The notes beneath the pieces are model-generated. The model worked only from the letters and a program-made list of their open reading frames with translations. It was not told where the DNA came from and made no database searches. Positions 2,273 to 63,870 of a DNA stretch of 64,000 bases are shown piece after piece. Every line of letters starts with the position of its first letter. Positions within the stretch are counted from its first letter, which is position 1. The DNA lies in NCBI RefSeq assembly GCF_041886205.1, contig NZ_CP169029.1; one strand, written 5' to 3'. Both the position numbers and the translations under genes were made by a program. This stretch comes from Escherichia coli. GTDB taxonomy: Bacteria; Pseudomonadota; Gammaproteobacteria; Enterobacterales; Enterobacteriaceae.

Positions 2273-2411
2273 GGACTTTCCTGTGGAACAGCGTTTAAGC
2301 CTTTATCTGCCTATTGTACTCCTGATTCGTCCGGGACGCCTTGATCCCGGACGCAACAATTTAAGACTTTTCACAATTAAATGTCTGCAAAATTGTCCAA
2401 AAGTGGCAATG

Positions 2412-3599
2412 TTATACAATTCGCGCAAAACCGGCGTCCAGATCGGCAATCAGATCGTCGACATCTTCCAGACCAATATGCAGGCGAATCAAGGTCCCGC
2501 TAAAATCGATCTCGCCTTGTGGGCGAATGGCGGCGATATGTTCTGGTTGATTCGCCAGGATCAACGATTCATACCCGCCCCACGAGTAGGCCATGCTGAA
2601 TAAACTGAAGTTATCCAGATAGTTCGCCAGCTCTTCATTACTGAGTTTTTTCTTAAGCACAAAGGAAAATAGCCCGCTGCTACCTGTAAAGTCTCGTTTC
2701 CAAAATTCGTGGCCTTTACTGCCAGGCAGAGCAGGGTGGTTAACTCGCGCAACTTGCGGATGTTCTGCCAGCCATTCAGCCACTTTCAGACTGCTTTCAT
2801 GATGTTGACGCAAACGCACACCTAATGTGCGCAGGCCACGGCTGGTTATATAGGCGGTATCGGCATCGACCATCTGGCCCATCAGATAGGCGTTTTCCCG
2901 TAGCTGCTCCCAGCAACGGGCATTGCACACGGCAGTGCCAATCATCGCATCTGAATGCCCAACCAGATATTTGGTGGCGGCTTGAATAGAAACATCGATG
3001 CCAAAATCCAGCGCCTTAAACAGCACACCGGCTGCCCAGGTGTTGTCGATCATAATGATGGCATCCGGCACCACACTGCGTACGGCGGCAACAATCGCCG
3101 GAACGTCGTGGACTTCCATGGTGATGGAGCCTGGCGATTCCAGAAACACGATTTTAGTGTTTGGCTGCAGATGCTTAACGATATCGGCACCAATCAGCGG
3201 ATCAAACCACGATGTCGTTACGCCCAGTTTGCTGAGGATTTTGCTACAGAAATCCTGACTCGGTTCATAGGCGGTGTTGGTCATCAACACATGATCGCCC
3301 TGTTCGACAAAAGCAAGAATCGAATTAGCAACCGCTGCCGCCCCGCAGGGAAATAGCGCGCAGCCTGCGCCACCTTCCAGTTCACACATCGCTTGTTGTA
3401 AGGAAAAATGGGTTAACGTTCCGCGCCGTCCATAGAACAACTCGCCATTGGCGCGATTGCGCGTCGCGTGCTTTTTGGCTTCCATACTCTCAAATACCAG
3501 CGAAGAAGCGCGCTGAATCACGCTATTTACCGCGCCAAGAGTGTATTTTTTGCTGCGTCCTGCATTCACCAGTTGAGTATCAAGCTTTTTGTCCGCCAT
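2412..3599 (-). CDS. metC: Cystathionine beta-lyase MetC
   Basis: The ORF 2412-3734 contains the MetC sequence from the internal Met [19 protein letters not shown]…; a 395-aa product starts at 3599. A PLP-lysine context (…[10 protein letters not shown]…) is present. Confidence 0.9.
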
Positions 3600-3850: not shown

Positions 3851-4585
3851 GTGGGTAATAATTTGATGCAGACGGACCTTTCCGTCTGGGGTATGTATCA
3901 GCACGCCGATATTGTCGTTAAGTGCGTGATGATTGGGCTTATTTTGGCCTCCGTAGTCACTTGGGCAATCTTCTTCAGTAAGAGCGTAGAATTCTTCAAT
4001 CAGAAGCGTCGCCTTAAGCGCGAGCAGCAACTGCTGGCTGAAGCGCGTTCCTTAAACCAGGCCAACGATATCGCCGCTGATTTTGGTAGCAAAAGCTTAA
4101 GCCTGCATTTGCTCAATGAAGCGCAGAATGAGCTGGAACTGTCAGAAGGCAGCGACGATAACGAAGGTATTAAAGAACGTACCAGCTTCCGTCTGGAGCG
4201 TCGGGTCGCCGCAGTGGGTCGTCAAATGGGCCGCGGTAACGGCTATCTGGCAACCATCGGCGCGATTTCTCCGTTCGTTGGTCTGTTTGGTACGGTCTGG
4301 GGCATCATGAACAGCTTTATTGGTATCGCGCAAACGCAGACCACTAACCTGGCAGTCGTTGCGCCGGGTATCGCAGAAGCTCTGTTAGCAACGGCAATCG
4401 GCCTCGTGGCAGCGATTCCTGCGGTCGTTATCTATAACGTATTTGCACGCCAGATTGGCGGCTTTAAAGCGATGCTGGGTGATGTTGCAGCGCAGGTATT
4501 GTTGCTGCAAAGCCGTGACCTGGATCTGGAAGCCAGCGCCGCTGCGCATCCGGTTCGTGTCGCACAAAAATTACGCGCAGGATAA
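3851..4585 (+). CDS. exbB: TonB-system energiser ExbB
   Basis: 244 aa, MGNNLMQTDLSVWGMYQHADIVVKCVMIGL…, MotA/TolQ/ExbB family; GTG start. Confidence 0.9.
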   Translation: MGNNLMQTDLSVWGMYQHADIVVKCVMIGLILASVVTWAIFFSKSVEFFNQKRRLKREQQLLAEARSLNQANDIAADFGSKSLSLHLLNEAQNELELSEGSDDNEGIKERTSFRLERRVAAVGRQMGRGNGYLATIGAISPFVGLFGTVWGIMNSFIGIAQTQTTNLAVVAPGIAEALLATAIGLVAAIPAVVIYNVFARQIGGFKAMLGDVAAQVLLLQSRDLDLEASAAAHPVRVAQKLRAG

Positions 4586-4591
4586 TATCCG

Positions 4592-5017
4592 ATGGCAATG
4601 CATCTTAACGAAAACCTCGACGATAACGGCGAAATGCATGATATCAACGTGACGCCGTTTATCGACGTGATGTTGGTTCTGCTGATTATCTTTATGGTGG
4701 CGGCACCGTTAGCGACGGTAGATGTGAAGGTGAACTTGCCTGCTTCTACCAGCACGCCGCAGCCGCGCCCGGAAAAACCGGTTTATCTGTCGGTGAAGGC
4801 AGACAACTCGATGTTTATCGGTAACGATCCGGTCACCGATGAAACAATGATTACGGCGTTGAATGCGTTAACCGAAGGCAAGAAAGACACCACCATCTTC
4901 TTCCGGGCGGACAAAACCGTCGATTACGAGACGTTGATGAAGGTAATGGATACGCTGCATCAGGCGGGTTACCTGAAGATAGGTCTGGTCGGCGAAGAAA
5001 CCGCCAAAGCGAAGTAA
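4592..5017 (+). CDS. exbD: TonB-system protein ExbD
   Basis: 141 aa, MAMHLNENLDDNGEMHDINVTPFIDVMLVLLIIFMVAAP…, 6 bp downstream of exbB. Confidence 0.9.
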   Translation: MAMHLNENLDDNGEMHDINVTPFIDVMLVLLIIFMVAAPLATVDVKVNLPASTSTPQPRPEKPVYLSVKADNSMFIGNDPVTDETMITALNALTEGKKDTTIFFRADKTVDYETLMKVMDTLHQAGYLKIGLVGEETAKAK

Positions 5018-5022
5018 AGTAG

Positions 5023-5250
5023 AATTGCCTGATGCGCTACGCTCATCAGGCCTACAAAATCTATTGCAACATGTTGAATCTTCGTGCGTTTGTAGGCCGG
5101 ATAAGGCGTTCACGACGCATCCGGCATTAGGTGCTCAATGCCTGATGCGCTACGCTTATCAGGCCTACAAAATCTATTGCAACATGTTGAATCTTCATGC
5201 GTTTGTAGGCGGATAAGGCGTTTTCGCCACATCAGGTAAGAGTGAATTCA
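5023..5250. repeat. Tandem REP/BIME-type intergenic repeats (two ~115-bp copies)
   Basis: The unit gcctgatgcgctacgct(c/t)atcaggcctacaaaatctattgcaacatgttgaatcttc…gtaggc(c)ggataaggcg occurs twice, with imperfect palindromes typical of REP elements. Confidence 0.7.
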
Positions 5251-5255
5251 CAATG

Positions 5256-5290
5256 ATGCCCGGTTGCTTTTCACAACCGGGCATTTTTTT
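5256..5290. terminator. Stem-loop plus T-run between the convergent exbD and yghA genes
   Basis: gcccggttgcttttcacaaccgggc followed by attttttt. Confidence 0.5.
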
Positions 5291-6173
5291 AACCTAAATG
5301 CTCGCCGCCGCACACGCCGTGCACTTCTGCGGTGACGTAGCTCGACTCCTGACTTGCCAGATAAACATATACAGGGGCCAGTTCCGCCGGTTGCCCCGCA
5401 CGTTTCATCGGCGTTTGCTGACCAAACTGCGGGATCTTATCCTGCGTTTGTCCGCCGGAAATTTGCAGTGCTGTCCAGATCGGGCCTGGCGCGACAATAT
5501 TCACCCGAATACCTTTCTCCGCGACCTGTTTTGCCAAGCCACGGCTGTAGTTCAGAATCGCCGCCTTCGTAGCCGCATAGTCCAGTAAATGCGGACTTGG
5601 CTGGTATGCCTGGATTGACGAAGTGGTGATGATACTTGCACCTTTCGGTAGCAGGGGGATCGCTTCCTGGGTTAGCCAGAACAGCGCGAAAACGTTAATG
5701 GCAAAGGTCTTTTGAAACTGTTCGCTGGTGAGGTCTGCAATATCCGGAATGGCAACCTGTTTCCCGGCGACCAGCGCCATAATATCCAGCCCGCCTAACG
5801 CCTTGTGCGCTTCGTGAACCAGCGAACGGGCAAATTTCTCATCGCTTAAATCGCCTGGCAGCAGAACGGCTTTGCGTCCGCATTCTTCAATGATCTTTTT
5901 CACATCCTGAGCGTCTTCTTCTTCCACGGGAAGATAACTGATCGCCACGTCAGCCCCTTCACGCGCGTAAGCGATGGCGGCAGCGCGACCTATTCCGGAA
6001 TCGCCCCCTGTCACCAGTGCTTTACGATCTTTCAGGCGACCGCTACCAACATAGGTTTTCTCGCCGCAATCCGGTACCGGTGTCATCTTCGCCTGGATGC
6101 CTGGCGTCGGTTGTTTCTGTTTGGGATATTCACCAGTGTAATACTGCGTGGTCGGGTCTTTTAAATGAGACAT
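5289..6173 (-). CDS. yghA: SDR-family NAD(P)-dependent oxidoreductase YghA
   Basis: 294 aa with a Rossmann motif ([15 protein letters not shown]), consistent with YghA. Confidence 0.85.
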
Positions 6174-6294
6174 CGTTTTTCTCCCTTCAGGTTCAACGTC
6201 CTTTAAGGGTAGACGTTCTCGATGCGTTGATAAGGGAACCAGGAAGATCCCTAAACCTCAGAATTATGCGACAAAGGTTTAACGTATATGTTGA

Positions 6295-6858
<564 letters not shown>

Positions 6859-41470: not shown

Positions 41471-41824
41471 TAGCGTCAAAAAAGCCCCGGCAAGTTTTAT
41501 TGTCGGGGCTATGATAGTAACTGCGGTAGTACATTTATCCCGGAAATAACCGGAGCGATTATCAGGGTTTAACAATATTAAATACCCGTAGCGCATTACT
41601 AGCGGGCCTAAAACAACAATATGGACATCTTAACGATACTCTGCGCCTGCGTGTGCGGAACAGAAACCCTTACCCGATATACTTGTTATGCCAGAGGTAG
41701 CAATTGCGTTAGCGGCGTACTGTTGCTGTAAAGTATAACGTCTATATTTTACAGTTCAGTCCTCTTTTGCTTATTACAACCTTAAGTATATCAAGCATAT
41801 AAAGATAATAAGAGACTGAACAAT

Positions 41825-63610: not shown

Positions 63611-63819
63611 CAGCTTTTCCTTACAGAGGGTGAATAAAAAAGCCGGTACCCACAAATGTGGATACCGGCAGGTACAAAACAGCATGGTCAGATAAAGTGG
63701 TTTTTCCCGGACATAAATGCTTCCCCTCTCTCATCCGCCAGAGAAGTATCAGTCCGTTGTGTGCAATTCCGTTCTGCATGATGAAGAGATTCAGCTGCCT
63801 TTTCGCAGACCATTAACCA

Positions 63820-63870
63820 CTATAAACGATCGATAGTAACGATCGATACCTGTTTTATCGATCGTTTTAT
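63820..63870 (-). promoter_or_regulatory. agn43 phase-variation switch: three GATC (Dam) sites in the OxyR-binding region
   Basis: GATC at 63827, 63840 and 63859 within aaacGATCgatagtaacGATCgatacctgttttatcGATCgtttt, about 220-250 bp upstream of the flu start. Confidence 0.7.

Follow-up and report, generated by a model that had tools for sequence, protein, structure and literature searches.

The spacer between the convergent genes exbD and yghA of Escherichia coli carries a duplicated repeat, which raises the question of what kind of element this is, how it arose and whether it affects the genes on either side. We analyzed it within a stretch of 64,000 nucleotides from contig NZ_CP169029.1, referred to here as the window. 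Our conclusion, which we hold with high confidence, is that positions 5026-5237 contain two tandem BIME-1-like units, known as REP222, which most likely act as a 3'-end RNA/DNA element in the manner proposed below.

Organization of the exbD-yghA spacer

The spacer is 271 nt long and is identical to that of E. coli K-12 MG1655 at 271 of 271 positions in a global alignment. The genes, repeats and terminator are arranged as follows:

4592-5017 (+): exbD coding sequence, from the ORF list; the RefSeq annotation of identical matches reads 'exbD: TonB system transport protein ExbD'
5027-5055 (+): REP 1, Z1 type (GCCTGATGCGCTACGCTCATCAGGCCTAC), one mismatch to the Z1 consensus
5056-5091: long linker (L type) in unit 1; its IHF-like core, ATTCAACATGTTG, lies at 5067-5079 (- strand), and BIME-1 paralogues have a conserved L linker that aligns with it
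5092-5125 (-): REP 2, inverted Y type (GCCGGATGCGTCGTGAACGCCTTATCCGGCCTAC), no mismatches to the Y consensus
5126-5139: short linker between the two units, a canonical BIME 's' motif (ATTAGGTGCTCAAT); it can be aligned with the linker in the Rfam naRNA4 model (iY-s-Z)
5140-5168 (+): REP 3, Z1 type, exact consensus match (0 mismatches)
5169-5204: linker (L type) in unit 2; IHF-like core at 5180-5192 (- strand)
5205-5237 (-): REP 4, decayed Y type, 81% identical to REP 2 over 27 nt in the alignment
5255-5292 (+): rho-independent terminator of exbBD (terminator scan and inverted repeat), 12-bp stem, 7-nt loop, T7
5289-6173 (-): yghA coding sequence, from the ORF list and the RefSeq annotation of matches; convergent with exbD

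The core of the array is a direct repeat of 72 nt (5026-5097 and 5139-5210, spacing 113) in which 70 of 72 positions (97%) are identical. The similarity extends at 81% identity over a further 27 nt (5098-5124 and 5210-5236), with a 1-nt deletion in copy 2, and stops at about 5237. In a global alignment the copies agree at 91 of 100 positions over REP-linker-REP and at 98 of 114 over the whole unit. The window thus holds, within 5026-5250, two head-to-tail units of 113 and 112 bp. The sequence-only reading of this stretch had reported a tandem duplicated REP/BIME between exbD and yghA, with two nearly identical copies of about 115 bp that differ by a few substitutions. The duplication is real and comprises four alternating REPs, of which the fourth is decayed. 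The size was right in substance, the exact period being 113/112 bp, and the near-identity holds for the first two thirds of the unit but not for the last third, where the fourth REP is visibly decayed. Tandem Repeats Finder reported no array at 4000-6500, presumably because only about 1.9 copies of the period are present and the last third has diverged.

In each unit a 36-nt linker of the L type, which includes the IHF-like core, separates a Z1-type REP from an inverted REP of the Y type. The Z1 REP of both units reads GCCTGATGCGCTACGCTyATCAGGCCTAC (5027-5055 and 5140-5168). The REPs have the form expected of this family, namely imperfect palindromes of 20-40 nt that follow the Y, Z1 or Z2 consensus and end in CTAC (GTAG on the other strand), and their alternating order, + - + -, with the conserved linkers L, s and L, is that of a BIME. 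Because 0.00 matches to the REP consensus patterns are expected in shuffled sequence, the repeat is not a chance resemblance. REP 4 has lost one base (GGCCGG to GGCGG) and carries several substitutions that break the lower stem; the Y consensus search missed it at up to 3 mismatches, and it is recognizable by alignment only. The 's' junction between the units is diagnostic of alleles with at least two units.

The TAA stop codon of exbD (5015-5017) is separated by 9 nt from the first REP, which begins at 5027. The terminator at 5255-5292 is the sole terminator-like site that the scan found in the region; it adjoins the yghA stop codon (5289-5291, - strand), its hairpin ending 3 nt from that stop. 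The REP array sits within the exbBD 3' untranslated region, between the exbD stop and the terminator, and so has the location at the 3' end of a transcription unit that characterizes BIME-1/RIB elements. The promoter scan detected no promoter-like sites in 4900-5400, which leaves an independent RNA gene unsupported. On the - strand the terminator hairpin (5255-5291) lacks a trailing T run, for which reason yghA transcripts probably read through it into the REP array. Such read-through is consistent with the published ~300-nt REP-containing yghA intermediate discussed below.

The element is already catalogued as EcoCyc REP222. It is an ordinary E. coli REP/BIME cluster, as the sequence-only reading had rightly assumed. 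Murashko et al. (2023) list exbB, exbD and yghA with REP222, to which five REPs, a-e, are assigned (PMC10100675). The element of the window is the same one, its sequence being identical to that of MG1655, but we recognized four canonical REPs instead of the five listed; the fifth sub-element, 'REP222e', is probably the terminator hairpin (5255-5285). The RefSeq MG1655 record has no repeat features annotated in the exbD-yghA spacer, so the name REP222 is drawn from the literature. Although the spacer is identical, the metC region (window 2326-3500) shows scattered substitutions relative to MG1655, so the strain of the window differs from MG1655; this region was compared at a fixed offset, and counts past the first differences are unreliable.

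Classification of the units and candidate IHF sites

Three kinds of BIME have been described (PMC3333891). In BIME-1, which is found in single copies, z1 and y REPs flank an L linker that is long, well conserved and in many cases equipped with an IHF site. BIME-2 pairs y with z2 REPs across a short S linker and is arranged in tandem. Atypical BIMEs mix motifs of both classes (y, z1, z2, L, S, s, l, r) into chimeras, present in several tandem copies whose number varies between strains. Each exbD unit has the composition of BIME-1/RIB/RIP elements, with one Z1 and one Y REP and a long L linker between them, but the element is not single: two tandem units are present in the window and in 3,672 of 5,426 genomes. 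The region 5018-5288 contains neither a Z2 REP nor an S linker and hence does not fit BIME-2. The joint presence of L and s motifs, the two units and the existence of alleles with 0, 1 and 2 units are features of atypical BIMEs. By its motifs, then, the array consists of BIME-1-like units and is formally an atypical BIME, because it is duplicated, joined by 's' and fails the single-copy description.

To find related units elsewhere, we used one unit as the query in genomes whose exbD-yghA site is without the element. Paralogous Z1-L-Y units were found directly after gldA, glnS, yhaC, gyrB and the Flag-2 flgD, and the best loci covered 89-96% of the unit at 80-88% identity. The exbD unit aligns over its full length with the five paralogous units, including the conserved L linker and the positions of the IHF core. 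The BIME-1/RIB/RIP elements after gyrB, glnS, gldA and yhaC share with the exbD units the REP types and their orientation, an L linker that is similar in length and has its IHF core (ATTCAAnnnnTTG) at matching positions, and the location right after a stop codon. They differ from the exbD array in that BIME-1 elements are described as single copies (PMC3333891), whereas at exbD two tandem units are joined by an 's' motif. The linkers differ as well: the L linker of exbD is locus-specific (...TTGCAACATGTTGAATCTTC...) compared with the canonical BIME-1 linker (...CTGCAATATATTGAATTTGC...). In full, the variant linker of the exbD units reads ...ATCTATTGCAACATGTTGAATCTTCrTGCGTTT... and occurs nowhere else in the window, and the canonical linker common to the paralogues contains ...ATCTCTGCAATATATTGAATTTGCGTGCTTTT.... 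Like atypical BIMEs, the exbD array mixes L, a BIME-1 motif, with s, a motif that flanks BIME-2, and is tandem with a strain-variable copy number; in this comparison the E. coli exbD array is limited to two units and has no Z2 REP. The Flag-2 flgD-flgE spacer (L007:1190-1425, strain DP033; also L010) contains a four-REP array, Z1-L-Y followed by Z2-linker-Y, which is a further BIME-1-like unit extended in tandem.

The IHF-type core ATTCAAnnnnTTG is found on the - strand of both the variant and the canonical linkers. The core ATTCAACATGTTG has one mismatch to WATCAANNNNTTR, at the very position where the canonical L core (ATTCAATATATTG) has its own. Matches to the IHF consensus with one mismatch occur about once per kb in the window, and because they are so common the case for IHF rests on homology to the linkers of proven RIB/BIME-1 elements. 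The locus probably offers two candidate IHF sites, one per L linker. The earlier suggestion that such elements bind IHF or gyrase can accordingly be narrowed: IHF is the expected partner because the composition is of the BIME-1/RIB type (Z1 + L + Y), and the gyrase type needs Y + Z2 + S.

Copy-number alleles in E. coli

A comparison of repeat copy number across strains had been suggested, together with the possibility that the duplication is a hotspot for recombination or length polymorphism. We ran this comparison with junction-specific 58-nt queries in 5,426 complete E. coli genomes, with the following counts:

exbD stop / REP 1 junction (at least one unit): 3,772/5,426 genomes
inter-unit junction (at least two units): 3,672/5,426 genomes (3,673 places)
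empty site, exbD stop directly followed by the terminator: 1,632/5,426 genomes

With these queries, 5,404 of the 5,426 genomes are accounted for. The alleles are thus shared out as two units in ~68%, one unit in ~2% and none in 30%, where the one-unit class of ~100 genomes is an approximate figure obtained by subtraction (3,772 minus 3,672). At most one genome has three units, since the inter-unit junction was found in 3,673 places in 3,672 genomes. The exbBD terminator is kept in alleles with 0, 1 and 2 units. Two-unit lineages include K-12 and O157. Genomes with the empty site include ST131, CFT073 and ATCC 25922 (Seattle 1946), all of which we take to be B2 strains.

The one-unit allele was read in one example, strain XYEH3314, which carries the copy 1 variant at its left and the copy 2 variants at its right. 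Judged by these variants, it is a recombinant hybrid, the product expected of recombination or slippage between the copies. The expectation of length polymorphism was therefore borne out at this locus by alleles of 0, 1 and 2 units. Presence/absence and copy-number polymorphism of BIMEs has long been known (reported by Bachellier et al. 1997, Genetics 145:551; PMC3333891).

Occupation of the third REP by IS621

A further source of variation is IS621, a bridge-RNA recombinase element whose natural target is the 11-mer ATCAGGCCTAC with a CT core (PMC11208160). This target is present twice in the array, at 5045-5055 (REP 1) and 5158-5168 (REP 3). In strain EC11, IS621 occupies L005:2716-4001 (NZ_CP073360.1), which corresponds to window position 5164/5165; it lies in REP 3 between ATCAGGCCT and AC, and the CT core is duplicated. 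IS621 was found at the second target (REP 3) in 177 of the 5,426 complete E. coli genomes, as counted with an 81-nt query for which 80% coverage can be reached only by an insertion at the exbD-yghA locus. These 177 occurrences may reflect either recurrent or inherited insertion. In strain EC052 a 'hypothetical protein' is annotated under the IS621 junction match, in the IS621-disrupted allele.

Distribution among Escherichia and other genera

With a degenerate exbD pattern we recovered 85 Enterobacteriaceae loci. Where the two genes are neighbors in other genera, they are usually separated by 38-112 nt, with a maximum of 184 nt, and the spacer contains a terminator and sometimes the genus's own repeats; none of these spacers contained an E. 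coli-type BIME.

Three loci (L023, L040 and L062), from records titled 'Escherichia coli' or 'Escherichia sp.', have exbBD/yghA flanks 93-96% identical to the window. Because their flanking genes are just 93-96% identical, they are not E. coli proper and probably belong to cryptic Escherichia clades. L062 has 0 units and the same empty junction as the B2 strains; in L040 there is a single unit, whose L linker is closer to the canonical one. L023, whose flanking genes are ~94% identical, has four REPs with the same positions, flanks and 's' linker as the window, but its units have diverged into a Z1 with a truncated linker, followed by a Z2 with a different linker. The two-unit and the empty states thus both occur outside E. 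coli proper, among three Escherichia lineages. Since these loci show all three states and other genera lack the element, the element is confined to Escherichia and either predates the diversification of E. coli or has been exchanged by recombination. The direction of change can also be read in two ways, an ancestral empty site and a precise loss both being compatible with the data.

The near-identity of the units in E. coli suggests homogenization or re-duplication. The contrast between 97% identity of the units in E. coli and their divergence in a cryptic Escherichia lineage might reflect gene conversion that is still under way at the site, or re-amplification there by a transposase.

Proposed action on RNA and DNA

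The transcript of yghA was chosen by Murashko et al. (2023) as a model multi-REP transcript. A probe for the REP region on yghA detected a full-length RNA of ~1,000 nt and a decay intermediate of ~300 nt (PMC10100675); the Northern probe was internally labelled and, if it was not strand-specific, part of the ~300-nt signal could stem from exbBD transcripts. The half-lives were 2.8 min for the full-length RNA and 6.2 min for the intermediate, and both half-lives rose to >16 min under ATP depletion or when RNase E lacked the degradosome scaffold (PMC10100675). Folding predictions for RNA of the region give highly stable structures for either strand: -110.8 kcal/mol (z = -6.5) for the + strand and -113.2 kcal/mol (z = -8.45) for the - strand.

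We propose that the four REPs, transcribed from either strand, fold into very stable stem-loops that would hold up exonucleases degrading the RNA from 3' to 5' until the stem-loops are unwound by the RhlB/PNPase degradosome. The upstream message would thereby be protected and long-lived REP-containing decay intermediates would accumulate, as the literature has shown for yghA and as we infer for exbBD. The sequence-only reading had said that such elements stabilize upstream mRNA; the published stability data concern yghA, and with exbBD and yghA convergent the word 'upstream' holds on both strands.

An effect on translation may be added. Ribosomes that terminate at a stop codon are reportedly stalled by REPs located at most 15 nt past it (Liang, Rudd and Deutscher 2015, in the account given by PMC12306157). 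REP 1 starts 9 nt after the exbD stop and falls inside this limit. In the zero-unit allele, however, the terminator hairpin begins 4-5 nt after the exbD stop, and because this allele too has a hairpin so close to the stop, the 15-nt rule may not separate the alleles. At the DNA level, each L linker appears to keep the IHF core of the proven IHF-binding RIB/BIME-1 elements.

As for its origin, the unit would derive from a family that is dispersed over the genome at the 3' ends of genes. Its duplication probably happened in place, because both copies carry the L variant that is absent elsewhere in the window and because the best other loci in genomes lacking the element reach at most 88% identity. 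Copy number would then shift by recombination between the repeats, and the Z1 REPs are natural targets of IS621. Any host function is dispensable, because 30% of genomes lack the element.

Alternative explanations

That so many strains do without the element gives some weight to the possibility, which we consider the less probable one, that it is near-neutral selfish DNA, a REPIN-like doublet that was spread by a REP-associated transposase and duplicated locally, with no meaningful effect on exbBD or yghA. The 1,632 of 5,426 genomes without it include the successful ST131 and CFT073, it is absent from all other genera in which exbD and yghA are adjacent (spacers of 38-184 nt), and its fourth REP is decaying. 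The inverted REP doublet structure of REPIN/RAYT systems is present, and the tnpA-REP (yafM) locus presumably lies elsewhere on the chromosome. This gene is present in most E. coli genomes, and its product TnpA-REP cleaves BIMEs and assembles tandem copies in vitro (PMC3333891). Moreover, a 2026 preprint describes REP locations as varying by strain and effects on expression and half-life as context-dependent and not uniform. The same preprint describes one REP that is both a partial terminator and an mRNA stabilizer, and an association of REPs between convergent genes with higher expression of both, with large context dependence. Against an inert element stand the REP-containing yghA intermediates and their degradosome-dependent turnover, which were measured at this very locus (PMC10100675). 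The two units have also been kept 97% identical over Z1-L, and in an Escherichia lineage whose flanks are ~94% identical the four REPs occupy conserved positions. We therefore prefer a 3'-end element that acts on RNA and DNA.

Among the alternatives that assign the array to another functional class, a gyrase-binding element of the BIME-2 type is very improbable. The exbD element is tandemly repeated, as BIME-2 elements are, and in 1997 Espeli and Boccard reportedly found that gyrase cleaves BIME-2 elements in vivo. However, the class is defined by the Z2 REP and the short S linker, and the exbD units, built of Z1, a long L linker and Y, have neither.

Slightly less credible still is a naRNA4-type gene for a nucleoid-associated non-coding RNA that would act with HU to condense the chromosome. 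The Rfam model RF02564 does give a full-length match at 5095-5165 (+), with 61.0 bits against a gathering score of 59.5. This model, however, describes an inverted Y - s - Z REP pair, so that any such pair scores and the match indicates REP-pair homology only. The exbD match is marginal, its second hairpin is Z1 and not Z2, and a promoter-like site is lacking in 4900-5400. REP325/naRNA4 resembles the junction between the exbD units in its inverted Y - s - Z pair and in its location in a 3' UTR, but REP325 repeats a Y-Z2 pair six times with short linkers in between, whereas the exbD array has a Z1 hairpin and L linkers. In addition, the role of REP325/naRNA4 in compaction is disputed by the 2026 preprint mentioned above, whose authors include members of the original laboratory. 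A second REP pair of the window, at 16139-16218 (inverted Y - short linker - Z2, BIME-2-like), outscores the exbD element on the naRNA4 model, with 93.2 bits on the - strand and 60.3 on the + strand.

Finally, a small protein-coding gene can be dismissed: the 63-aa TTG ORF at 5025-5216 (+) and the 40-aa ORF at 5110-5232 (-) both appear in the mechanical ORF list, but they consist wholly of repeat sequence (REPs and linkers), 30% of genomes lack the entire stretch, the promoter scan of 4900-5400 was negative, and the stretch is non-coding in every RefSeq match examined except the IS621-disrupted allele of EC052, so that we rejected both ORFs as coding.

Significance and additional observations

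As two BIME-1-like units in a shared 3' region, the element is itself of little import, REP/BIME clusters being among the best-known repeats of E. coli. What the present analysis adds is modest and quantitative: across 5,426 genomes, this one locus is cleanly polymorphic in length, with three states. It refines the description of REP222 in its exact class, in the shared 3' region of two convergent genes, in allele frequencies, in recombination between the copies and in occupation by IS621. The locus is therefore a handy natural test bed for the effects of REP copy number on two convergent genes.

It is conceivable, though we think it unlikely, that the number of units (0, 1 or 2) works as a natural expression dial, such that mRNA stability or 3'-end processing of exbBD and yghA differs between K-12/O157 and ST131/CFT073. 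If so, the IS621 insertion in 177 genomes would be a further state of the dial, and one of the genes concerned, exbBD, encodes the energy transducer for TonB-dependent iron uptake.

Two other RNA features of the window were detected with Rfam. Positions 41525-41746 (- strand) give a full-length, essentially exact match to the sRNA C0719 (294.5 bits), and positions 63629-63865 (- strand) match the IS102 RNA with 74.6 bits against a gathering score of 46.
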